Part shown: positions 3,284 to 23,458 of the stretch, piece by piece | How the letters are laid out: every line of letters begins with the position of its first letter | How positions within the stretch are numbered: the stretch's first letter is position 1 | Virus record (IMG/VR): IMGVR_UViG_2974731182_000001 | Source: a virus | Taxonomy: Duplodnaviria > Heunggongvirae > Uroviricota > Caudoviricetes > Crassvirales | Length of the DNA: 64,000 nucleotides | Reading direction: 5' to 3' (one strand) | Translations under genes and position numbers: made by a program | Notes under the pieces: model-generated | Seen by the model: the letters and a program-made list of their open reading frames with translations, nothing else | What the model was told of the DNA's origin: nothing | The model's database searches: none

Positions 3284-3871
3284 TTATACAAAATCGAACA
3301 AGTTTATTCCTGGTTTTACCTTTAAATAATTTTCTTTATTCTTTCTTCTTGAGTACAATTTCGGAAGTACCTTCTCATACCATTTAGAATCTTTCATTGA
3401 AGAAGCTATCCATAAGTGTATATCTGAATCCACTATATCTGAATCAAATTTATAGAGCTGCTTACCATCTTTTATCCTATATCCTCCGAAGAATCTAATT
3501 TTAGGATAATTTTTCTCCAAATATTTACATAGCTGTATAAATCCTTCATTATCTTCTATGTAAGATACTTTCCCTAGATTTAATCTAATATATACGTTTT
3601 CCTTTTGTAGGAGATCAAGTATATCAAATAATGTATAATTAGATTTATATCTAAATCTCTTATTGGAAAATTCCCACTTTAATGTCTTTTGATTAAAGCT
3701 TATTACTAAATCAAAACAGGATATTTTAATTCCGTTAATATAGGTCTCCAATTGTTCGAAAATATTCTTGGATTGGGTTCTAGAGAATAGAGAGTGCCAT
3801 AGTTTGGATAGCATGCCTGATGAAGGTAAATATGATCTGCTATCATTACTTCCTACAATGATTTCTTTCAT
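3284..3871 (-). CDS. hypothetical protein
   Basis: 195-aa ORF, first gene of the minus-strand block. Confidence 0.5.
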   Translation of the reverse strand: MKEIIVGSNDSRSYLPSSGMLSKLWHSLFSRTQSKNIFEQLETYINGIKISCFDLVISFNQKTLKWEFSNKRFRYKSNYTLFDILDLLQKENVYIRLNLGKVSYIEDNEGFIQLCKYLEKNYPKIRFFGGYRIKDGKQLYKFDSDIVDSDIHLWIASSMKDSKWYEKVLPKLYSRRKNKENYLKVKPGINLFDFV

Positions 3872-4423
3872 GTTACTTTTCCTTTATTTTATATTTTACT
3901 TTATTTCCTTTAGGGTATAGTTATCCCTTATGGATTTGTTAATTTTTTTTAAATCCATTAGAGGATATATTACTATATCCCCTTATCTTAGAATTTCATA
4001 GTGGGCGGTTTACCCCAAGAGCCTTTTACCCTCAACCTTTTCTCATCTACATTGGTAGGCTACCACTCCTTATAACTAAGACAGTTTTTGTATAGGGGTT
4101 ACCTCATTCCTATTTGGAACTACTACCCTATTCATCTCCAAAGCCTGTACATCAACTTTATGGTATGAATCTCTGGAGAGATAAGAACTGTAGATATTCT
4201 CAACAGGTACAAATGTAAGCAAAATAAATAATATATGCAAATTATTTAGTGAGATTTTATTTCGGTGCTATGAAAAATTTATTTTTTATTTTTTTTTTAT
4301 TTTTTTTTCTTAGCTTGTTTTATATGAGAGAGATGTACACCAACCACACCTCCCCCATCACTTAGCCAGTGGGGATATTCCCCCGGTATTAACTTATTAT
4401 CTAACAATTAAATTATTACCATT
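3872..4423. promoter_or_regulatory. 550-bp divergent non-coding region with GC-rich islands and long T/A tracts (candidate divergent promoters, origin or small RNA)
   Basis: No ORF. Local GC-rich segments (GTGGGCGGTTTACCCC, CACCAACCACACCTCCCCCATCACTTAGCCAGTGGGG) sit in an AT-rich genome. A T8/T9/T9 tract lies at 4275-4308. The region sits between diverging genes. Confidence 0.35.
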
Positions 4424-4684
4424 ATGGAAAAGAATCTTGTATTCAATGCAACTTTAACTGTTGAGCAATTTAAGGACAAAATGCATGTTTCACGCATTGA
4501 TGTTAAGAGGAATCCTAAGACAGACAAACTCTTCTTTACATTTGGAAGTAGTACTGGAGCTGTAGCATCAAAAGGAATTCCCACAAATCCTATGCTCAGC
4601 AATGTCACTACTCCTGACGGAGATAACTTCTGGCTTCTACATGAAGAGGGTAATGGTGGAGCACCTGTACTTGCATCATTCTAA
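4424..4684 (+). CDS. hypothetical protein
   Basis: 86-aa ORF followed by an intrinsic terminator. Confidence 0.45.
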   Translation: MEKNLVFNATLTVEQFKDKMHVSRIDVKRNPKTDKLFFTFGSSTGAVASKGIPTNPMLSNVTTPDGDNFWLLHEEGNGGAPVLASF

Positions 4685-4688
4685 AGAA

Positions 4689-4712
4689 AGGGTACTATGT
4701 ACCCTTTTTTTA
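4689..4712 (+). terminator. Rho-independent terminator
   Basis: Stem AGGGTAC/GTACCCT with a 3-nt loop, then T7. Confidence 0.6.
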
Positions 4713-4891
4713 TTCCTCTAAGCTTTAATAGTTTCAATCCTTTTAGTATTAATAGTAATTTATACTAACAGGTTTGAACTATTAAAGTCTAGTACGAAAT
4801 AAGAATGATTAGCAGATTATACTCTCTTAAGTATTATCTGTAAAATATAACTAAATTTACTGAACACATTATAGAATCAAATCTCCTAAAA

Positions 4892-5212
4892 ATGTCCAAA
4901 CACTTCTATAATGGTATACTTTATCAGATAGAGTATCAGCCACAATTGTCTAATAATGACTATACTCAACACAAAGTATATCATATAAAGACAAACGATG
5001 AGAATTATCCTCATGCAAGAAAAGCCATTGCTTCTATTATGGAGAGTGAACTTGGTTATGAGAAAGAAGCAATATGGAACGAAGGTTTATATCAACTGAA
5101 AAATGATAAAGAACCTTCCATATTAAATGCTCTTCATGTATACTATAAGTTCTCATATAATGAAGAACTTAATGTATATGTATATACTTTTGTCAGACCT
5201 TACGATGATTAA
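4892..5212 (+). CDS. hypothetical protein
   Basis: 106-aa ORF. Confidence 0.45.
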   Translation: MSKHFYNGILYQIEYQPQLSNNDYTQHKVYHIKTNDENYPHARKAIASIMESELGYEKEAIWNEGLYQLKNDKEPSILNALHVYYKFSYNEELNVYVYTFVRPYDD

Positions 5213-5654: not shown

Positions 5655-5885
5655 ATGTCAAGAACTAAATTTAGAAAGTCGAGAATATGTAGTTCAGATA
5701 ATTACATACTCTCAAGAGAGATATATAAAAGCTATCTCTTGGAGCATCATACCAAAAATATAAAGGTAATTGAGAGTTATACAGAAATAAAATGTGCCTA
5801 TATTAAATGTTTTGATAAGTTAATTCCAATAACAGAACAAGAAGCACATTTAATACAAAACACAGTAACTATAATATGGAAATAA
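5655..5885 (+). CDS. hypothetical protein
   Basis: 76-aa ORF. Confidence 0.3.
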   Translation: MSRTKFRKSRICSSDNYILSREIYKSYLLEHHTKNIKVIESYTEIKCAYIKCFDKLIPITEQEAHLIQNTVTIIWK

Positions 5886-5985
5886 CCATGGAAGAACCTT
5901 ATTACACAATCTTATGCTTGTTATTAACAGGAGCATTCTTTATATATCTTACAGCACAAGATAATAGTTCAAAAAAGTAAGTAAG

Positions 5986-6198
5986 ATGAGAGTCATAAAA
6001 CTGATTATAAAAGGAGTGTTGCTATATGTAACATTCCTTTTGTCTTTTTTCTTCTTAGCAGGAGTAGATAGCATATATGACAATGGGTACTTCCTACACT
6101 TCATAACTATAATAATATCCATGTGTTATATCTGTTACAAGACTATTTCTAAAGAAGAATTGAAAAAATTAACTCTAGATAAATGGTTAAACAAATAA
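5986..6198 (+). CDS. small membrane protein
   Basis: Two hydrophobic helices. Confidence 0.35.
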   Translation: MRVIKLIIKGVLLYVTFLLSFFFLAGVDSIYDNGYFLHFITIIISMCYICYKTISKEELKKLTLDKWLNK

Positions 6199-6321
6199 AA
6201 AAAAGATAACATAAGAACAATAATAGTAATATTTACAGATCATAAAGTACCAGTTAGTGAAATCCCTAACTATAAAAAGTACAAATTTTTATGTAACTAT
6301 GACTTAGTTAAACAATATGAT

Positions 6322-6942
6322 ATGATCGAAGATCCTAGATATTGCCCTCAAATGATGGTAGTAGGATTTGATCCAAGTACAAAAAGGAGACAGAAAGGTT
6401 TGGTTCTTAAGGATATCTATATCACCAGAATAAACGGAAAATGTATTAATCAACCAATAGGATTAATAAATGGTAGCATACCAGAAACATATCACAACTT
6501 AAATAAACGAGAAGCAATCACGGAAGAATCTAGAACAATAAAAGTAACATTAGAACAAGCAAGAGAATGGTACAACAGTAATAATTTAGCACTAAGAACA
6601 CTAGCATTGAGTACTTTCAAGGAAAGTGAATTAAATATAGATCTTGAATATATCATGACGGCTATTATAGGTCGAAGAAAGATTTTTCCACTTACAGCAA
6701 AAGAAGTAACAAAACAACAAACATTAGCACATTTAAAGTTCATTGCTGAGTACTTCAATAAAACTTGGGAAAAAACTACAGAAAATGCTGGATACTTTAT
6801 AGGGAAACTCTATAAAGATGGGGAGATCGAAGTATTTGAACATAAGGGAACACAACATGCAGGTATTATCTATTTTAAGAATCCTGAGGATGCAGAAAAA
6901 GCAATTAAAATTCTAGGGAAAGAAGTACTTAATTTATTTTAA
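6322..6942 (+). CDS. hypothetical protein
   Basis: 206-aa ORF. Confidence 0.5.
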   Translation: MIEDPRYCPQMMVVGFDPSTKRRQKGLVLKDIYITRINGKCINQPIGLINGSIPETYHNLNKREAITEESRTIKVTLEQAREWYNSNNLALRTLALSTFKESELNIDLEYIMTAIIGRRKIFPLTAKEVTKQQTLAHLKFIAEYFNKTWEKTTENAGYFIGKLYKDGEIEVFEHKGTQHAGIIYFKNPEDAEKAIKILGKEVLNLF

Positions 6943-9364: not shown

Positions 9365-9616
9365 ATTAAGAAAAGCATGGATTGGAGATTGGAATTATGG
9401 TGTATCTAGTAACCAATTTCTATATGCTATTTGTCACACTAGAGATGGGAGTTTAGATGTTATTTCAACATTTTCATTATGTTCTCTCCCTTTAACATTT
9501 CCAACAAAGGAGATGGCAGCAGATTTCCTTAACTGTTTTATAGACTTATGTGAAGTTGCTAAGATCTTAATATAAAATAAGAGGATAGATATTAACAGAA
9601 AATTTAACTAAATGAC

Positions 9617-9862
9617 ATGAAAATAGAATATACATCTGGATGCATAGCTCATTCTTTAACAATAGATGGAGTTGAGACTATAGATTTAGATCCTAAAGAA
9701 TTTAAAGAGAAGGCTCTAAAGGTTATAGAGAAGATAAATAATGAACAGCTATTGAGAGATTTTCTGATTCAAGCAGTAGAAATAATGGGAGAATCAGAAG
9801 TAATAGCACATTGTGATGAATGCGGAGACAATATTTATAAAGATACCCTAATTATCGATTAA
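9617..9862 (+). CDS. hypothetical protein
   Basis: 81-aa ORF. Confidence 0.4.
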   Translation: MKIEYTSGCIAHSLTIDGVETIDLDPKEFKEKALKVIEKINNEQLLRDFLIQAVEIMGESEVIAHCDECGDNIYKDTLIID

Positions 9863-16729: not shown

Positions 16730-17641
16730 ATGACGAACAAAATCTTTATGGCTTTTGCTACAGGCAGTGAATCTACAGAAGGTAATGTAGTTAAAAAGTA
16801 CACTGGGGTGGGTTCAGTAAGTGTGCTAGCTGTTAATCCTGATAAGGAAACACTAGAAAAATTGTACAATACTACTATCAATGATGGCCCTTCGTATTTA
16901 AGCGAAGTTGAAGTTGGTCCAGAAGGGGATAAACATACAGTTCCTCAAGTAAGAATAGATTTCATTGTACAGACAGATCCTGAGAAATGCAATGGAATTG
17001 ATATGAAAACCAAAATACCTTTCTTTATTACCAGAGAGGTGAGATATAACAGAGATAGAAGTAAGGTTCAAGTGATAAATAAATATGGAGAGACCACTTG
17101 GTTACCTATAGAGAATGCGAAATCTGGCACTGTTCCAGCTAATCTTAGTTGGTTTGAACCTGCTGATTTTAGACCGGCTTACATAGGAGAAGAGGATCTT
17201 ACAGGATTCTTGAAAGCATACTTGAATATCCCCAATAAATCTTATAGGAAAGCTAGTGGAGAAGTAGTAGAAATACCGAATAAAGCTGATGCAGAGGCTA
17301 GATTGGATAAAATTGACAATTACTTCAAAGGAGACTATTCAGAGTTGAGAGAAGCAATCTCTTTGCAACCTAAGAATAGGGTTAAAGGGTTGTTTGGAGT
17401 GAGAACTACTGAAGATGGTAAACAATATCAAGCTGTTTACACTCAGAAATTCTTGAAGAACAGTGTAACCGACTACAGCAGACTGGATGCAGAACTTCAA
17501 GAGAGAAAAGCTGCTGGAGCTTATCCTACTACAGAGTTTGAGGTCTGTGATTTAAAGGAATACACAGTAGAATCTACTGACTTCAACAATAATCCGGAGC
17601 CTTCTTCTGATATGCCTATGCAAGACTCTCCATGGTTCTAA
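16730..17641 (+). CDS. hypothetical protein, possibly a single-stranded DNA-binding protein
   Basis: 303 aa; acidic/aromatic C-terminal tail '...DMPMQDSPWF', reminiscent of SSB tails. This is weak evidence. Confidence 0.5.
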   Translation: MTNKIFMAFATGSESTEGNVVKKYTGVGSVSVLAVNPDKETLEKLYNTTINDGPSYLSEVEVGPEGDKHTVPQVRIDFIVQTDPEKCNGIDMKTKIPFFITREVRYNRDRSKVQVINKYGETTWLPIENAKSGTVPANLSWFEPADFRPAYIGEEDLTGFLKAYLNIPNKSYRKASGEVVEIPNKADAEARLDKIDNYFKGDYSELREAISLQPKNRVKGLFGVRTTEDGKQYQAVYTQKFLKNSVTDYSRLDAELQERKAAGAYPTTEFEVCDLKEYTVESTDFNNNPEPSSDMPMQDSPWF

Positions 17642-17673: not shown

Positions 17674-18669
17674 ATGTCATTTATCTCTGGGAGATCTTCA
17701 ATCAGCTTAGAGGACATATTAAAGAAAACTGCGGAATCTAATATCCTATACTTTTACTTAGGTATTACAGATATACCCTGCATAATTAATTCTCCTCTTA
17801 GGGAGGATAAGAGACCTTCCTTTGGATTATACTCTAGAGATGGAAAGAGAATATTCTATACGGATTTATCTACAGGAGATAGGGGAGGACTATTTGATCT
17901 CTTATCTAAAATGTGGGGAATTCCATATGTAGAAGTATTAGAGAGAATAGATAAAGATATACCAAGATTTTCTAGTAGCTCTAATATAAAATCATGTAAC
18001 TCCTGTAATATAATTACCACTCAAAATTATAATAAATCAATTGATTTGCAGTGTAAGGTAAGAGAGTGGAGGAAACATGATATAGAATATTGGGAATCCT
18101 TTGGGATAAGCCTAAAGTGGTTGAAATATGCTGATGTCTATCCTATATCTCATAAAATTATAATAAAAAACGGAGTAAGAAATGTCTATGTAGCAGATAA
18201 ATATGCTTATGCATATGTAGAACGCAAAGAGGGAAAAATCACTTTGAAAATTTATCAACCATTTAACAAAAATGGCTATAAGTGGAGTAACAAACATGAT
18301 TTATCAGTGATTAGCTTATGGACAAAGATACCAGAGTATGGAGACTTAGTATGTATATGTTCCTCCATGAAGGATGCTCTTTGTTTATGGGCTAATACTG
18401 GTATTCCATCTTTAGCGGTTCAAGGAGAAGGCTACAGAATAAGTGATACAGCTATTAATGAGCTTAAAAGAAGGTACAAAAATATATATATACTATTTGA
18501 TAATGATGAAGCAGGGCTCATAGATGGAGAGAAACTGGCTAAATCTACAGGATTTACAAATCTGGTATTACCTAAGTTCGAAGGGGATAAGGATATATCA
18601 GGTTTATATCATTCTCTTCAGGATAAGAAAGATTTCATCAAAATAATAAAGGGTTTATTTGAGAAATAA
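17674..18669 (+). CDS. DnaG-like primase (TOPRIM) with degenerate zinc-binding motif
   Basis: N-terminal 'NSPLREDKRPSFGLY' matches the DnaG zinc-binding-domain core 'CPFHxEKTPSF' but lacks the Cys/His residues. TOPRIM DxD motif 'ILFDNDEAG'. Confidence 0.6.
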   Translation: MSFISGRSSISLEDILKKTAESNILYFYLGITDIPCIINSPLREDKRPSFGLYSRDGKRIFYTDLSTGDRGGLFDLLSKMWGIPYVEVLERIDKDIPRFSSSSNIKSCNSCNIITTQNYNKSIDLQCKVREWRKHDIEYWESFGISLKWLKYADVYPISHKIIIKNGVRNVYVADKYAYAYVERKEGKITLKIYQPFNKNGYKWSNKHDLSVISLWTKIPEYGDLVCICSSMKDALCLWANTGIPSLAVQGEGYRISDTAINELKRRYKNIYILFDNDEAGLIDGEKLAKSTGFTNLVLPKFEGDKDISGLYHSLQDKKDFIKIIKGLFEK

Positions 18670-18701: not shown

Positions 18702-19307
18702 ATGGAAGCAAGAAAAATCACAATCGTATCGACAAAGAGACAAGAGAAAAGTGTAATTATGTCTGATGCCACTACACTAGAGGAACTGAAAAGAGACTTG
18801 GACAAGGCAAACATAGATTATGAAGGTATGGTATTTTATGAAGGAGTTTCAAAAACTGAGTTAGTTAATAATAATTCTGTTCTTCCTTCTAATATCCCCT
18901 ACAGAGGACAAACTACCAATGAACTTGTATTCATGTTGACTAATCCCAACAAAAAGATTAAGTCTGGAGCTATGAATAGAAAGGAGATCTATGCTCTTAT
19001 CAAGAAACACAATTTGCAAAAGGCCTGTCTTGAAAATTATAAAAAAGATTACACCAGATGTAAATCTGAAGATCTTCTCAAATTAATTGAATATAGTAGT
19101 TGCACTTCTAATAAACAGCCTGTTGAAATGGTAGACCCTAATATCAGGCTAATAAAGGAAGTAGAAGGACTTAGAAAGTCTGTGGATCTTATACTTCAGA
19201 CTCTGCAGCATCCGCATGTCATTAATAATTCAGATAATATAAAATCAGGTGAGATTAATTCATCCTATTCTGATGCTGAAATTGATGAGATGTTTGATTT
19301 TGTTTGA
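18702..19307 (+). CDS. hypothetical protein
   Basis: 201-aa ORF followed by a terminator. The N-terminal ~90 aa have a beta-grasp-like alternation; this is speculative. Confidence 0.5.
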   Translation: MEARKITIVSTKRQEKSVIMSDATTLEELKRDLDKANIDYEGMVFYEGVSKTELVNNNSVLPSNIPYRGQTTNELVFMLTNPNKKIKSGAMNRKEIYALIKKHNLQKACLENYKKDYTRCKSEDLLKLIEYSSCTSNKQPVEMVDPNIRLIKEVEGLRKSVDLILQTLQHPHVINNSDNIKSGEINSSYSDAEIDEMFDFV

Positions 19308-19325
19308 TAAAGTTTTTGTTTATTA

Positions 19326-19359
19326 GCAGGTAAGAATCCTTCTTACCTGCTTTTTTTTT
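19326..19359 (+). terminator. Rho-independent terminator
   Basis: 10-bp stem GCAGGTAAGA/TCTTACCTGC, then T9. Confidence 0.7.
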
Positions 19360-19369
19360 ATTATGTAAT

Positions 19370-20677
19370 ATGGTAGGAGAGAAAACCAGGGAATTCATAA
19401 GAGCTGAACTTGAGAAGCAATTTGAAAAGGTAACAAACGTACTAGGAGTATTTGAAGATTTCTTTGGAGAAGATAAGGTAGACCTACAAGGTATCCCTAC
19501 TGTCTCTAAGATAGAAGAAGTTTTCTTGGGACTCTATGGAGAAAAAAGCATTGGAAGCTTAGGTGAACTATCACATATAGAGGCAGATATGCATAGTACA
19601 GAACTTGTAAAGGATGTGCCAGATGAAATTTTAAGTAGTACTTCTAGTGTTATGGTAGTTATTTCGGAGGTACTTTATCATGTAGTTCATGAAAGCAGTA
19701 TAAAAATTATTGTGTATTTCCCAGAAGTAAGGGTTAGTAATGAGTATAATAAATTTATAGATATTACCGAACTATATACCAAGATATCCTTAGATTTACA
19801 AGGTACGATGGTAGGAAGTTTTTCTTTCAATAGAGGGGAATACACAATAGAGCAATATCTTAGTGACTACATGCATTCTCATGTATGTGGTATACCGAGA
19901 AATAATCCTGAAAGATTTCTTGAAGTATGTTTAGGATCGGGTCCTATAAGAAATACAGTAAATAACTTAAATGCTAATTATGATCTAGATATTTGGAGAC
20001 TATTTTGTGTAGAGTTAGATAAATACGTAGCAACTGAATCTATAAGTGGAGGCCCCTACAGAAGGTTGGGGAATGTAAGTTTTCATGGTACTAGTATGAT
20101 AGCATCCTTGAGTATTAATACTTCAACAGGTATACCACAAAATCTAGTGCCCATGATTAACGAATTTATCAAATACTTCATAAAGCAGAAAAAGTTAGTC
20201 TTTAATTATAGGAACGGAAGCTACTCTATTGGTATGAATTTAACAAAATTTATATTACTAGTAAGCAATGAGTTCATCACTTGGTTCAATACTAATGGTA
20301 GATACAAGTACGCAAAGAGTGAGATAGAAAGAAATTATGCGTCCATGAGAAATATCATAACAACGGTATCTGTAACTAACAATGCTATCTACAAGATAAG
20401 AGAGATGCCTAATCGTTTAATAGATAACGGATCTAATCTTGGAGTAATAGGAACATTTAAAGGGAAAGAGATAGTAGTTCGCATAGTAGGATGGGATAAT
20501 AGCAGTAATAATTTAACTACTATACTGGTTCCAGAAGTAATAGGTTATATATTAGGTAAGATACTAAAGGTAATAAATTGTGAATATGGAAAAAATAGAC
20601 CGAGCTCTAGAAATGAACAAGAACAAAATGGAGAAACAGAGAATTCCAGTAACCAGGAGTACTACTACTACTTATAA
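19370..20677 (+). CDS. hypothetical 435-aa protein upstream of JAB/E1 pair
   Basis: ORF in the track; no motif recognised with confidence. Confidence 0.5.
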   Translation: MVGEKTREFIRAELEKQFEKVTNVLGVFEDFFGEDKVDLQGIPTVSKIEEVFLGLYGEKSIGSLGELSHIEADMHSTELVKDVPDEILSSTSSVMVVISEVLYHVVHESSIKIIVYFPEVRVSNEYNKFIDITELYTKISLDLQGTMVGSFSFNRGEYTIEQYLSDYMHSHVCGIPRNNPERFLEVCLGSGPIRNTVNNLNANYDLDIWRLFCVELDKYVATESISGGPYRRLGNVSFHGTSMIASLSINTSTGIPQNLVPMINEFIKYFIKQKKLVFNYRNGSYSIGMNLTKFILLVSNEFITWFNTNGRYKYAKSEIERNYASMRNIITTVSVTNNAIYKIREMPNRLIDNGSNLGVIGTFKGKEIVVRIVGWDNSSNNLTTILVPEVIGYILGKILKVINCEYGKNRPSSRNEQEQNGETENSSNQEYYYYL

Positions 20678-20678
20678 A

Positions 20679-21773
20679 ATGGTAATACCAAGAGAAATAG
20701 AAGAGAAAATAAGATATATATGTAGAAAGGTATGGAAAGATGAATGGTCTGGAATTCTATTCTATACAGTTGAAGGATCCTTCAAAGATGGTAGCTTAAT
20801 TATAAAGTGTAGGGATATATATGTTATGGATATTGGAAGTGTCACCTATACAGAGTTTGATATGTCCCCTGATGTGGTCAGTTATATGGCAAATAATTCT
20901 GAATTGCTTGATTGTCAGATGGGGCTGATTCATTCACATAACAATATGAGCACATTCTTTAGTGGAACGGATATTCGAACCCTGGAAGAAGAAGGATTGG
21001 ATAGGAATCACTTTGTCTCTTTGATAGTTAATAATCAAGGAAGTTACACAGCTGCTATAACTAGAAAATTAATTAACAAACATATCACTGAAAGTTTCTG
21101 CTATCCTAGTTTTGGAAATGTGCAAATTAGTGAGGTTAGAGATTCTAAAGAGACTACCACTGAAGAATTAGAATATTACTATCTTGATATAGAAGTAGAA
21201 GGATATAATGAACATACAGCATTAGAAACCAGACTTGAAGAGATAGAAAAATCTAAGGAGTCTAAGATCGAAGAGGTAAAAAGTAAATTTAATGCTCCTT
21301 ATAGTAATCTTTTCCCTATACGTAATTCATTGATACGAGAGAATACATACGATCTAGAAGAAAACAAATTGGGTTGGAGACAATCCACTTTAGATTTTGA
21401 AGATAACGTGAAGAAGTATACCTTTAATAAAGCTTTGGCAAAGTCTCTGGCTCTTCAATTAGTAACAGGAAGTGTAGTTATTCCTAGAGAAAGTAAAATA
21501 AATATAAAATCTTGGGTAACAGGAATGGTTCCTATCTATGAGAGAAGATTTGGGAAGGGAGAAGAAGGATTGGATATATTTGAGAAATGGGCTGAAGGGT
21601 TCATAGAGTTTCTATGTTGGTTTACAATAGATGAAGATCTAATTAAACAAGGAGTAGAGGAAGATGAAATGAATGTATTATGTGCTGTAGCTATCAAGGA
21701 AGAACTACAAGAGCTTGATAATAATGTATATATAGAGAAATTTGTTAAAATATTAGATACTTATATTTACTAG
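20679..21773 (+). CDS. JAB/MPN (JAMM) metalloprotease-domain protein
   Basis: JAMM signature E...HxH-x7-S-x2-D: 'REIEEK...' followed by 'LIHSHNNMSTFFSGTDIRT'. The track ORF starts at 20580 and overlaps the upstream gene. The ATG at 20679, right after the upstream stop, is the more likely start. Confidence 0.65.
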   Translation: MVIPREIEEKIRYICRKVWKDEWSGILFYTVEGSFKDGSLIIKCRDIYVMDIGSVTYTEFDMSPDVVSYMANNSELLDCQMGLIHSHNNMSTFFSGTDIRTLEEEGLDRNHFVSLIVNNQGSYTAAITRKLINKHITESFCYPSFGNVQISEVRDSKETTTEELEYYYLDIEVEGYNEHTALETRLEEIEKSKESKIEEVKSKFNAPYSNLFPIRNSLIRENTYDLEENKLGWRQSTLDFEDNVKKYTFNKALAKSLALQLVTGSVVIPRESKINIKSWVTGMVPIYERRFGKGEEGLDIFEKWAEGFIEFLCWFTIDEDLIKQGVEEDEMNVLCAVAIKEELQELDNNVYIEKFVKILDTYIY

Positions 21774-21788
21774 AAGAGATATTATTAT

Positions 21789-22754
21789 ATGAGAAAGTTA
21801 GATGGAAACACTGGGAATGTTTCACCTATCCATCAGGATGTGAAGACCCTAACAAAATTAATTATAAAGGGAGAGATACCAAGCATTGAACAAATTACTT
21901 ATAATGGATTGCCTACTAATAAAGTTAAAATAGGAGATGAAATATTCTATCTCGATGCAGAGGAATGCTCTATGCTAGTAGATGAAATGGTAGCTCACTG
22001 CTTAATTGAAGATAAGATCCCTGAAAATTCTAAGACTTTGTTGATAAGTGAGGAGACATCAAGATTTAGCTCTGCTATTTGGTTTGATAAAATACGTCAG
22101 CAAAATGTTACTCTAGCTGGGTTAGGAGGAATAGGAAGTTACGTGGCATTTCTATTATCTAGATTGGGTATTAATACAATGACACTCTATGATCCAGATA
22201 CAGTAGAGAGAGTTAATCTGTCTGGGCAGCTATATAGTGAAAATCAAATAGGTGATTACAAAGTAAATGCTATATCAGATATGATGGTAAAGTATTCAGA
22301 CTATTATGGTGTTATAGCCAAGAATAAGAAGCTAGATAAGAGCTCAGCGGTAGATAAAATAACTATTTGTGGATTTGATAATATGAAAGCCAGAAAAGAG
22401 GCTTTTGAAAATTGGACTAATCTTGTAGACGGGTTAATTGATGAGGAACGGGAAAAATGTCTATTTATAGACGGTAGATTAGCAGCGGAAGAATTTCAGG
22501 TATTCTGTATAAAAGGGAGTGATATAGGAAGTATGCTGAATTATAGATCTTATTTTTTATTTTCAGATTATCAAGCTGATGCTACAGTATGTAGTTATAA
22601 ACAAACTACCTTTATGGCCAATATGATTGGATCCATTATAGTTAATTTATTTGTTAACTTCATAGCGAATCAGTGTGATCCTCTTATAGATAGGGATCTC
22701 CCATTCTATACTGAATATAATGCGGAAACAATGTACTTTAAAACTGTAGTATAA
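21789..22754 (+). CDS. E1-like ThiF/MoeB-family adenylyltransferase
   Basis: Rossmann nucleotide loop 'LAGLGGIGSYVAFLL' followed by 'LYDPDTVERVNLSGQLY' (equivalent to the ThiF/E1 'D.D.V..SNL.RQ' motif). Confidence 0.65.
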   Translation: MRKLDGNTGNVSPIHQDVKTLTKLIIKGEIPSIEQITYNGLPTNKVKIGDEIFYLDAEECSMLVDEMVAHCLIEDKIPENSKTLLISEETSRFSSAIWFDKIRQQNVTLAGLGGIGSYVAFLLSRLGINTMTLYDPDTVERVNLSGQLYSENQIGDYKVNAISDMMVKYSDYYGVIAKNKKLDKSSAVDKITICGFDNMKARKEAFENWTNLVDGLIDEEREKCLFIDGRLAAEEFQVFCIKGSDIGSMLNYRSYFLFSDYQADATVCSYKQTTFMANMIGSIIVNLFVNFIANQCDPLIDRDLPFYTEYNAETMYFKTVV

Positions 22755-23458
22755 TGGTTTTTTCAGATAGATATATAAGCACTCTACACAGATTATTAGT
22801 AGTTCCTACTTATTCAGTAACTTCTCTAGCACACTTGGACAATAATAATATGAATCCATATAAGGTAATTATTGAGGCTGATATAAAAACAAGTTCAGAG
22901 ATAGAGGTTCCTACTGTATTAAGACAAGTGCTTTACAGAACAAATACAGATATAGCTAGAGAAATACTCTCAAAAAAGAATAGAATAGGGACTCTAGTAG
23001 CCTTGGAAAGCAAAAGTTGTAATGCTTCAGGGAGTATCGCATTAATTAAGGCTCTAACTAGCTCACATCTCTTACATAAAGGATTTTGTAAGGGCCAAAT
23101 ATACTATGGGTGTAAAGGAGTAATATTCGATAAAGATATGAGAATGCTATTAATGGTAAATGAACGTTGCAGGGTTGGTGACCATAGATTTATACCTACT
23201 GGAAAGATAGTAGTGCATGTATCTCCTACAATATTTCTAGATAGATCAGGCATGTTAGAGAAGTATATAATTAATAAGATTATCCCTGCTTTTCTATACA
23301 AAGATGAAAACTATGAAAATAGGTATGAAGTAAAAATAAAGGTAGATAATGCAGAGGAATTTATAAGAACTATTCAGCCTCCTAAAGACAGAGATGTAAA
23401 CGAAACTCTAAACAATCTTTTAGAGAATAATATTAATCACTTATTACTACAGAGATGA
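22754..23458 (+). CDS. hypothetical protein downstream of E1-like gene
   Basis: 234 aa; start overlaps the E1-like stop (TAATG). Confidence 0.5.
   Translation: MVFSDRYISTLHRLLVVPTYSVTSLAHLDNNNMNPYKVIIEADIKTSSEIEVPTVLRQVLYRTNTDIAREILSKKNRIGTLVALESKSCNASGSIALIKALTSSHLLHKGFCKGQIYYGCKGVIFDKDMRMLLMVNERCRVGDHRFIPTGKIVVHVSPTIFLDRSGMLEKYIINKIIPAFLYKDENYENRYEVKIKVDNAEEFIRTIQPPKDRDVNETLNNLLENNINHLLLQR

Follow-up and report, generated by a model that had tools for sequence, protein, structure and literature searches.

Does a tailed phage of the Crassvirales encode a ubiquitin-like conjugation system of its own? The question is raised by a locus in the window, the whole stretch of 64,000 nucleotides analysed here, which derives from the phage cr128_1 (Steigviridae, Crassvirales). 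A preliminary description, made from sequence alone, had noted a JAB/MPN metalloprotease gene beside an E1/ThiF-like gene at positions 19370-23458 and proposed that the pair and its uncharacterised neighbours form a system for conjugation and deconjugation of a ubiquitin-like protein (Ubl). All four open reading frames (ORFs) of this span are present on the + strand, as it stated, and the pair does sit among replication genes: the cassette lies in the replication module, with a primase on one side and a UDG on the other. The proposed span holds only in part, since the unit reaches upstream to 18702. The whole cassette (18702-23458, + strand) comprises five genes, namely Ubl, E2-like, JAB, E1 and a gene of unknown function (genes 1-5), packed with overlaps of 50, 1 and 4 nt and one gap of 15 nt. 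A 62-nt gap separates the Ubl gene from the E2-like gene and contains a terminator-like hairpin found by a consensus scan (19325..19351, + strand), a 12-bp stem with T9 after it (RNA fold -17.9 kcal/mol, z -4.9). The equivalent site in crAss001 (z -6.3), bajarodcaudo virus 1 (z -3.3) and Flavobacterium phage FpV4 (z -5.3) also has a hairpin and U-tract, of differing sequence. It is possible, by inference, that the hairpin is an attenuator that would keep the Ubl transcript more abundant than the enzyme transcript.

Gene 1 (18702..19307, + strand; homologue of crAss001 gp79) encodes a 201-aa protein, which is read here as a Ubl precursor. The earlier suggestion of a beta-grasp-like N-terminus is borne out in the predicted structure, in which residues 1-83 form a ubiquitin-like beta-grasp domain. 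This domain is followed by a flexible tail (residues 84-89, KKIKSG) ending in an invariant S88-G89 (nt 18963-18968), and by a variable C-terminal extension (residues 90-201) composed of a helical domain, a low-complexity linker and an acidic/aromatic tip with a conserved SxYSDxEIDxMFDF. A bacterial system of the Bil type requires a beta-grasp Ubl whose C-terminal glycine is open to activation; gene 1 meets this requirement with a glycine that is internal in the precursor, and cleavage after Gly89 is inference only. A natural split of the gene bears on this point. In three loci (L049, L087 and L097), a free-standing NUMOD4-HNH (homing) endonuclease gene interrupts gene 1 two codons past the SG, where the first ORF ends in KSGIC or KSGKF before its stop codon and the second restarts with MNTNNMTR. 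No group I intron was detected at the split in these loci, nor is there room for one; thus, the Ubl and the extension can be separate polypeptides. The insertion site could also be explained in part by homing to a DNA sequence that is conserved.

Gene 3 encodes a JAB/MPN+ (JAMM) metalloprotease of 381 aa (20628..21773, + strand; homologue of crAss001 gp77). The preliminary description had placed its start at 20679, giving 364 aa; the annotated ATG at 20628 (MEKQ...) is the more likely start and aligns with the MEEK... of crAss001. The added N-terminal residues are conserved, and relatives also show the overlap with gene 2, which amounts to 50 nt with this start. The JAMM signature reported earlier held: E22...H85-S-H87-x7-S95-x2-D98 (numbered from ATG 20679; glutamate at nt 20742-20744, HSH-x7-S-x2-D at nt 20931-20972) is complete, with every metal ligand of the E...HxH...S..D peptidase expected of a Bil-type system, and the absence of metal-binding residues that would have refuted the proposal is not met. 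In crAss001, bajarodcaudo virus 1 and FpV4 the motif is unchanged, and its residues are found in 84-85 of 86 distinct homologues, the remainder being gaps that stem from truncated or intron-split ORFs. Overall similarity is weak: Pfam Prok-JAB just misses its gathering score (E 5.5e-5, 23.4 against 25 bits), and the nearest solved structure by profile is the archaeal JAMM1 (E 0.01), the nearest solved relatives being JAMM1, CSN5 and Rpn11-like proteins. What carries the JAB assignment is therefore the conservation of the catalytic residues. No assignment was reached for the C-terminal half (about 230 residues), and no Pfam match to NlpC/P60 was found in the protein. GenBank annotates gene 3 as 'contains metalloprotease domain'.

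Gene 4 (21789..22754, + strand; 321 aa; homologue of crAss001 gp76) begins 15 nt downstream of the JAB gene, not 16 nt as first reported, and encodes an E1-like (ThiF-family) adenylyltransferase. The Pfam ThiF model matches with an E-value of 1.1e-17 (64 bits, cutoff 28 bits). The reported GLGGIGS is confirmed within AGLGGIGS at residues 109-116 (GxGGxG loop, nt 22119-22136), and the second motif, said to contain 'SNL', actually contains 'VNL' (D135-P-D-T-V-E-R-V-N143-L-S-G-Q147). R92, the GxGGxG loop, D135, K158, D228 and C268 are invariant in 91/91 homologues. The last of these (nt 22590-22592), within the ThiF domain, is a possible catalytic cysteine by inference, its structural position being unchecked. 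The adenylation domain with an intact nucleotide-binding site that a Bil-type E1 requires is present, with the caveat that the Arg of the canonical 'NLxRQ' ATP-binding motif is replaced by an invariant Gly (G146); therefore, the adenylation chemistry of gene 4 may be atypical. The IAD-AAD-CYS architecture of BilD is not met, as gene 4 contains a single ThiF domain, with neither a second adenylation domain nor an inserted Cys domain. Its N-terminal 95 residues are variable and are missing from FpV4 and a Puia locus, where the core E1 comprises about 230 residues. The best PDB matches (MccB, PaaA, Uba5, TcdA and NAE) cover the nucleotide-binding half only, the PADLOC Cap2 'E1-E2' models match over the E1 part only (up to 4e-14), and every NCBIfam match is far under its cutoff. 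The crAss001 homologue is named 'thiamine biosynthesis protein, ThiF' in GenBank.

The two flanking proteins had been proposed as E2-like, Ubl or target components, and this holds in part. Gene 2 (19370..20677, + strand; 435 aa; homologue of crAss001 gp78) contains, roughly between residues 92 and 220, a central domain that is a candidate for an E2-like (UBC) fold and carries an invariant H169-S-H171 (nt 19874-19882) and an invariant C187 (nt 19928-19930), the latter a possible catalytic cysteine by inference. Its N- and C-terminal domains have no assignment. The similarity is at the fold level only and with modest scores; no sequence similarity to known E2s and no PADLOC or NCBIfam match was found, so that an E2 role is plausible but inferred and not secure. 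Gene 5 (22754..23458, + strand; 234 aa; homologue of crAss001 gp75) remains unassigned in fold and function, with no match in Pfam or the PDB. An exhaustive HMMER search returned 371 homologues, all of about 220-265 aa, with GEVYYGxxGIILDKD as the sole conserved motif. The gene always lies 3′ of the E1 gene, its start codon overlapping the E1 stop codon, and from this position alone it could conceivably encode an adaptor, an E3-like factor or a substrate.

Comparison of synteny across related crAss-like genomes, which had been recommended as a check, showed that the five-gene order is kept in the relative loci with enough flank (about 80 viral contigs, crAss001 (gp79-gp75), DAC15-like phages and FpV4), except that no gene 5 could be detected in the three loci that diverge most. 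The order Ubl, E2-like, JAB, E1 is unbroken in all sufficiently flanked loci, a range running from Steigviridae of the gut to FpV4 and to a Puia contig from soil, and the position of the cassette relative to primase, UDG, exonuclease and polymerase genes is constant. The Ubl and JAB genes are each found in 74 phage records with identical counts per organism name, and the E1 gene is found in 81, that is, the same organism counts plus seven others; the association is thus not due to chance.

Among known systems, the cassette most invites comparison with Bil (Bacterial ISG15-like) types I and II, which comprise BilA (Ubl), BilB (E2), BilC (JAB) and BilD (E1), lack an E3, couple conjugation to a JAB deconjugase, and have an E2 that is proposed to choose the target (PMC11601596). 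The phage cassette shares the four component types, the E2 only putatively, in a gene order that tracks the A-D lettering; it likewise has no recognised E3 and pairs its putative conjugation genes with a presumed JAB deconjugase. By contrast, it lies in the replication module of a lytic phage rather than in a bacterial defence island, its E1 consists of one ThiF core (about 230 residues) and a variable N-terminus, its 435-aa E2-like protein has extra domains and no sequence likeness to known E2s, its Ubl bears a fused C-terminal extension, and it has a fifth conserved gene. None of the PADLOC/NCBIfam models for Bil, Bub or CBASS matched at threshold; only the generic E1 fold was matched, and the Ubl, E2-like protein and JAB had no match to these models. 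Bub (6E/DUF6527) systems process a Ubl fusion by their JAB domain, which parallels the processing proposed for gene 1, but their Ubl is fused to E2, they employ Tyr/Ser oxyesters without catalytic cysteines, whereas the phage E1 and E2-like protein each have an invariant cysteine, and their DUF6527 serine protease is missing from the cassette. Type II CBASS shares the pairing of E1 with JAB (Cap2/Cap3); however, Cap2 is an E1-E2 fusion and the phage proteins are separate, and CBASS uses the CD-NTase C-terminus in place of a true beta-grasp Ubl. Similarly, archaeal SAMP/UbaA/JAMM1 joins a beta-grasp modifier and a JAMM protease to an E1 of minimal, single-domain form, with Pyrococcus JAMM1 the closest solved JAB by sequence to gene 3, but sampylation is cellular rather than viral, works without an E2 and has a second role in sulfur transfer, and SAMPs end in a free GG. 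To our knowledge, the only Ubl-JAB association previously known in tailed phages is the Lambda/T1-type TAPI (Ubl)/TAPK (JAB-NlpC/P60), in which the Ubl precedes a C-terminal domain and is probably JAB-processed (PMC1779556); that pair belongs to the tail module, lacks both E1 and E2, and has its JAB fused to NlpC/P60, in contrast to the E1 and E2-like genes of the replication-module cassette.

On balance, the evidence leans modestly toward the interpretation that 18702-23458 is a phage-owned, Bil-like system of Ubl conjugation and deconjugation, as the preliminary description had proposed. Support for that claim stops short of chemistry: no biochemical data exist for any step, conjugate, thioester and cleavage have not been shown, and the target and purpose are unknown. 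A feasible model, every chemical step of which is inferred, may be as follows. Gene 1 would be made as a precursor, with the beta-grasp Ubl and its flexible tail to Ser88-Gly89 fused to the C-terminal extension, and the JAMM protease would cleave past Gly89, yielding a Ubl with a free C-terminal glycine and a C-terminal fragment. The single-domain E1 would adenylate this glycine with ATP, probably forming a thioester on Cys268, after which the Ubl would move onto Cys187 of the 435-aa protein and from there to a lysine of one or more unidentified phage or host proteins, perhaps with gene 5 as an adaptor or substrate. The JAMM protease may also undo the modification.

Three other explanations can be considered, each of which appears unlikely. 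The first is a sulfur-carrier system, in which a ThiS/MoaD-like carrier is adenylated by the E1 and converted to a thiocarboxylate that supplies sulfur for nucleotide, tRNA, DNA or cofactor modification, with the JAB baring the glycine as in QbsD/QbsE or Mec+/CysO and the 435-aa protein acting as a sulfur-using enzyme. ThiF/MoeB-ThiS/MoaD pairs share the E1 and beta-grasp folds with the cassette, the E1 finds its top NCBIfam matches in ThiF and MoeB models, it carries the 'thiamine biosynthesis protein' label in GenBank, and the neighbours include nucleotide-metabolism genes. On the contrary, the equivalog scores are all far under cutoff (PRK08644, the best, 74.2 bits against 159; MoeB models 35-39 bits against 266-449), and the carrier bears a fused extension of 110 residues that leaves its glycine internal. 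The 95-kb genome of cr128_1 has no annotated thiamine, molybdopterin or sulfur-transfer partner (rhodanese, cysteine desulfurase, ThiG/H, MoaE, YcaO or PP-loop), unlike the Legionella plasmid cluster MoaD/ThiS-ThiF-YcaO-TfuA. Nor were ThiS/ThiG/ThiH, MoaD/MoaE or sulfurtransferase partners found in that annotation or in the neighbourhoods of crAss001, FpV4 and bajarodcaudo virus 1, and the biosynthetic context named earlier as a second refutation is thus not met.

The second is a processing-only module modelled on eukaryotic ubiquitin-ribosomal-protein fusions, in which the Ubl would be an N-terminal chaperone or regulatory domain and JAB cleavage would free an active C-terminal replication factor, with the E1-like and 435-aa proteins doing non-conjugation work, such as the peptide/nucleotide adenylation or cyclisation of MccB, PaaA and TcdA. 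MccB, PaaA, Uba5 and TcdA do lead the PDB matches of the E1, the extension carries a helical domain and a conserved acidic/aromatic tip, the tip resembling, by eye, an SSB-type interaction tail, and the E2 assignment is insecure. However, the MccB and PaaA matches are limited to the generic nucleotide-binding half, and the pairing of an E1 with an invariant glycine tail of the terminal type is the hallmark of activation at the C-terminus. Moreover, the extension is not conserved in the FpV4, Puia and Bacilli-MAG loci, in which the Ubl, SG tail, E1, JAB and 435-aa protein are kept; therefore, selection acts on the Ubl and the enzymes and not on a freed fragment.

The third is a counter-defence device that mainly undoes or jams host Ubl immunity (Bil, Bub or type II CBASS), with the JAB stripping host Ubl off phage proteins or de-priming CD-NTases and the phage Ubl, E1 and E2-like protein serving as decoys or competitors. 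Host Ubl systems that tag phage proteins are known, the E1 resembles Cap2-type E1 domains in PADLOC (4e-14), and this alternative concerns purpose, so that the same chemistry fits it. On the other hand, a deconjugase by itself would suffice, yet the full five-gene set with its own Ubl is strictly conserved; the cassette keeps a fixed site in the replication module, rather than occupying a variable region of accessory or anti-defence genes, even between very distant phages and hosts (Bacteroides, Flavobacterium and Puia among them); and its proteins show no likeness in sequence to the Cap3, BilC or Bil Ubl models. Identification of the cassette as type II CBASS (no CD-NTase annotated, no effector, no E1-E2 fusion), as a Lambda-type tail-assembly Ubl/JAB pair (sited between primase and UDG, no NlpC/P60 match, E1 present) or as the PRTRC of plasmids/ICEs (TIGR03736, 31.8 bits against a cutoff of 144.75; other PRTRC models match no cassette protein) was rejected.

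If the conjugation reading is preferred, its purpose, for which the preliminary description had offered protein modification or counter-defence, is undecided among replication control, host takeover and counter-defence, and a tie to replication is inferred only from the constant place of the cassette between the primase gene and the UDG, exonuclease and polymerase genes. It is tempting to speculate further that Bacteroidota tailed phages (Steigviridae crAss-like phages, FpV4-like Flavobacterium phages and soil relatives) own a complete Ubl cascade, with an E2-like family unrelated in sequence to any known one, that tags phage or host proteins during genome replication, with replisome or nucleoid components as possible targets; the present evidence falls a little short of favouring this bolder reading. 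No prior description of such a phage cassette was found in the literature searched, and cultured relatives of cr128_1 make the proposal testable. If the bolder reading is true, the cassette would be the viral answer, in an offensive or regulatory role, to the defences that bacteria have in Bil, Bub and CBASS, and the first 'ubiquitination' system belonging to a bacterial virus.

The first 64 kb of the genome of the uncultured phage cr128_1 (MT774392; Mahlunavirus rarus, Steigviridae, Crassvirales), which originates from human faeces, is identical to the window, and the two sets of coordinates coincide. In its annotation, the replication module on the + strand runs in the order DnaB helicase, ATPase, primase, five "hypothetical" genes, UDG, resolvase, PD-(D/E)XK exonuclease, RNR, dUTPase and PolA. 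The five genes lie just downstream of the primase (17674-18669, + strand) and encode, in order, a 201-aa putative ubiquitin-like (Ubl) precursor (18702-19307), a 435-aa E2-like candidate (19370-20677), a JAB protein (20628-21773), a 321-aa E1-like protein (21789-22754) and a 234-aa protein (22754-23458).

The preliminary description had taken the third and fourth open reading frames (ORFs) for a JAMM metalloprotease and a ThiF-family E1; the ORFs are present as described, and both readings held. The E1-like protein matches Pfam ThiF at 1.1e-17, and its R92, G111xGG114, D135, K158, D228 and C268 are invariant in 91/91 homologues. At residues 140-147 (22206-22229), the Arg of the canonical NLxRQ ATP-binding motif is replaced by an invariant Gly in all 91, giving the forms NLSGQ, NMSGQ or NTGGQ; the N-terminal arginine finger, R92, is retained. 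The PADLOC Cap2 models match this protein in the E1 part only, and its PDB matches (MccB, PaaA, Uba5, TcdA, NAE, MoeB and Cap2) cover the nucleotide-binding half only. The JAMM signature comprises E22, H85-S-H87, S95 and D98, as numbered from the ATG at 20679. All five catalytic residues are shared by crAss001, bajarodcaudo virus 1 and FpV4 without change and are kept in 84-85 of 86 distinct homologues, the exceptions being gaps, while the Pfam Prok-JAB match itself is sub-threshold (5.5e-5, 23.4 bits vs 25). The annotated start at 20628 fits the homologues better than the ATG at 20679 chosen in the preliminary description. With this start, the JAB gene shares the last 50 nt of the E2-like gene (20628-20677), read in the +1 frame. 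Comparable overlaps, 35-170 nt long, are present at this junction in crAss001, bajarodcaudo, FpV4 and the Bacilli-MAG and soil Puia contigs, and the part of the JAB N-terminus that lies in the overlap is conserved (crAss001 and FpV4 both have KPVLELV). This recurrence points to possible translational coupling.

The 201-aa family is large (3,309 clusters), and no member carries a Pfam domain. The AlphaFold2 model (37 sequences, pLDDT 80) predicts a b-b-a-b...b domain at residues 1-83, followed by a disordered tail at 84-89 after the beta-grasp and then by helices. The tail reads K-K-I-K/R-S-G, and its terminal Ser-Gly is invariant in gut crAss-like phages and is kept outside the gut clade in FpV4 (KSGG), the Puia contig (DSGN) and the Bacilli-MAG contig (KSGS). 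Directly after the Ser-Gly, insertions, deletions and low-complexity sequence set in. The C-terminal extension, made up of a helical domain, a linker and an acidic tip (SxYSDxEIDxMFDF), is conserved only within the gut clade. The 201-aa protein is therefore likely to be a Ubl precursor, with a fold predicted by modelling and a cleavage that is inferred. A HeH/SAP-like reading of the extension was rejected as a mere impression, since the Pfam HeH match occurs in only 1 of 37 members (E 0.044). As a separate observation, a 303-aa ORF upstream of the primase (16730-17641), which has no Pfam match, ends in an acidic/aromatic tip (...MQDSPWF) that to the eye might resemble an SSB interaction tail. 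The end of the Ubl precursor (19260-19307; SYSDAEIDEMFDFV) forms a similar tip, and it is conceivable that both dock on one shared replisome partner.

Three IMG/VR contigs carry gene 1 in two pieces (L049, 3045-4361; L087, 3189-4405; L097, 3389-4345). The first ORF terminates in ...KKIRSGIC-stop or ...KKIKSGKF-stop, two codons past the invariant Ser-Gly. Past this ORF, after 14 nt in L049, comes a gene for a homing endonuclease of the NUMOD4-HNH-NUMOD1 type. The second ORF begins about 20 nt past the endonuclease stop with MNTNNMTRAEAY... and corresponds to the C-terminal extension, which has acquired its own start codon (MNTNNM...). A group I intron was rejected as the cause, with no Rfam match there and only 14-20 nt flanking the endonuclease ORF, too little to hold one; the arrangement is one of genes in pieces with a free-standing endonuclease. 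The E2-like, JAB, E1 and fifth genes are all intact in the three contigs. With gene 1 split into two ORFs, these phages can produce the Ubl, lengthened by two residues, independently of the extension. This is compatible with a physiological cleavage after Gly89, itself inferred, without proving it, and the insertion site may also reflect homing to a conserved DNA sequence.

The HNH ORF inserted in L087 reads M-E-I-TGA-K-D... (3471-3482) where its relatives have MEIW..., and this in-frame TGA may mark a pseudogenised endonuclease or hint at TGA-to-Trp recoding in that phage. A further free-standing NUMOD4-HNH endonuclease gene lies between intact Ubl and E2-like genes (L040, 3588-4142; L052, 3621-4175). 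In L028, the JAB gene is broken by a group I intron (Rfam RF00028, 66 bits; core 4651-4910, exons at about 4368-4700 and 5740-6657) exactly within the metal-binding motif, between GLIH and SHNN. Another group I intron is found in L049 at 9568-9811. The major capsid protein gene of MT774392 (73757-76913, outside the window; locus L098) is annotated as three pieces with small ORFs between them, which may point to introns or endonuclease insertions.

The 435-aa family comprises 168 matches, all crAss-like and none with a Pfam domain. P118, N124, R155, Y167, H169-S-H171, C187, G189, E223-S224, G227 and P229 are invariant. In the model (pLDDT 79), a helix (92-108) is followed by three long antiparallel strands and a short fourth (111-159), a loop bearing the HSH motif and C187, and two helices (192-219), an order of elements that is that of UBC/E2 folds. 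Foldseek of this model against the PDB gave nothing below E 1.4, searches of the family against Pfam, PADLOC and PDB profiles gave noise only, and hhalign against four manually entered eukaryotic E2 sequences gave a probability of 0.1%. Because no sequence or profile method ties the family to E2s, the assignment rests on fold alone. We regard the protein as E2-like with moderate confidence, at the level of a predicted fold only, with C187 as no more than a candidate counterpart of the E2 cysteine. Among the suggestions made in the preliminary description, the beta-grasp-like N-terminus of the 201-aa protein is borne out by the AlphaFold2 model, and the E2-like candidacy of the 435-aa neighbour holds in part, in fold order and without a sequence link.

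The gap between the Ubl and E2-like genes contains a strong 12-bp hairpin followed by T9 (19325-19351, + strand). RNA folding places hairpins with U-tracts in this gap also in crAss001, bajarodcaudo and FpV4 (z -3.3 to -6.3), at about 4015-4050, 3465-3510 and 4560-4595 of loci L002, L004 and L003. Across the four distant phages, the position is conserved and the sequence is not. The hairpin could terminate or attenuate transcription and in this way set the Ubl:enzyme ratio, in which case the Ubl transcript would exceed the enzyme transcript. The fifth gene evolves fast, with two homologues found by word-based search vs 371 by exhaustive HMMER search. It is homologous to crAss001 gp75 (4e-12) and to a bajarodcaudo protein (2e-16), and the only conserved motif of the family is GEVYYGxxGIILDKD. 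Pfam and PDB profile searches with this family revealed no relatives, and its hhalign match to FpV4 gp49 is confined to the motif and not significant.

In a tblastn search of 50,697 phage records, the Ubl and JAB proteins were each found in 74, and their tallies per organism name agree exactly: Bacteroides phages and FpV4-like Flavobacterium phages account for 29 records each, six "cr" phages are each counted twice, and bajarodcaudo, Kehishuvirus, Kolpuevirus and Dulem add a single record apiece. For the E1, the search gave 81 records, made up of the same tallies and seven more, among them weak matches such as Acinetobacter MoeB; p-crAssphage and Cellulophaga phage phi14:2 were absent from the matches. 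An IMG/VR scan placed E1 relatives on 423 contigs. Scanning all fetched loci with an HMM for each of the five proteins gave the order Ubl, E2-like, JAB, E1 and gp75-like on one strand in every sufficiently flanked locus, the fifth gene falling under detection only in FpV4, L016 and the Puia contig (L017). The neighbourhood is a phage replication module in every case, including the Puia soil contig (DnaB, primase, cassette, exonuclease, PolA). No non-phage (cellular) version was found in genome contigs or plasmids. The scan of genome contigs returned just 11 MAG contigs; phage-type genes surround the cassette in the two examined in detail (L015 and L017), and several others are crAss-sized. The MAGs to which contigs L007-L017 were assigned bear the names Clostridium, Bacilli, Spirochaetia and Acholeplasmatales, labels that are likely to reflect contaminated bins. 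Two of the cassettes are on very long contigs (Puia sp., 373 kb; Bacilli MAG, 640 kb), possibly integrated elements or chimeric assemblies. A plasmid version was rejected, the matches being weak, generic ThiF ones and the Legionella case a ThiS-ThiF-YcaO-TfuA cluster.

The simplest reading of the cassette, which we favour without regarding it as secure because its chemistry is inferred, is a cascade of Ubl conjugation and deconjugation. It rests on a predicted beta-grasp whose tail ends in an invariant glycine, an adenylating E1 and a UBC-like protein that each carry an invariant cysteine, a JAMM protease, the strict co-inheritance of these genes, and a gene order (Ubl, E2-like, JAB, E1) that parallels the BilA-D lettering of Bil operons. 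A pure counter-defence model, in which the cassette would serve only against host immunity, is unlikely, as it leaves unexplained why phages with very different hosts keep a full Ubl/E1/E2 set at one constant position among their replication genes. A processing-only model, in which the JAB would cut the extension free and the E1 would serve something other than protein conjugation, is also improbable, given that conservation is lowest in the very extension that would be released. A sulfur-carrier system, the outcome that would have refuted the preliminary description had the E1 been a plain MoeB/ThiF enzyme in a biosynthetic context, is likewise unlikely, since the E1 stays far below the cutoff of every ThiF and MoeB equivalog in NCBIfam, the annotation of the whole cr128_1 genome contains no partner enzyme, and the carrier here is a fusion protein.

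Public records label the cassette genes as hypothetical, "metalloprotease domain", "thiamine biosynthesis protein ThiF" or, once, "E1 enzyme family protein", and all four matched PHROGs families are of unknown function; the ThiF label is misleading and is corrected by the present analysis. No paper linking crAss-like phages with ThiF, E1, JAB or ubiquitin-like systems was found in the literature searched, which excluded papers behind a subscription, among them the original surveys of crAss-like families. The roles so far assigned to prokaryotic Ubl conjugation are sulfur metabolism, archaeal sampylation and, as a recent addition, bacterial defence against phages (CBASS, Bil, Bub). Relative to known Ubl conjugation operons, the cassette is likely to be new in being phage-owned, in its minimal E1, in an E2-like family without sequence kinship to known ones and in a Ubl made as a fusion precursor, its function being inferred. 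The conjugation model is testable in cultured carriers (crAss001, DAC15, the PhiCrAssBcn phages, Kehishuvirus, Kolpuevirus and FpV4) and predicts a diagnostic tryptic Ser-Gly remnant (+144.05 Da) on modified lysines. If it is correct, the known repertoire would gain a further E2-like family as well as a minimal E1, and five "hypothetical" genes in hundreds of gut phage genomes would gain a function. The cassette, fixed in the replication module, ranges from human-gut crAss-like phages to phages of fish-pathogenic Flavobacterium, and a complete Ubl/E2-like/JAB/E1 set belonging to lytic phages would mean that viruses of bacteria use Ubl chemistry too.
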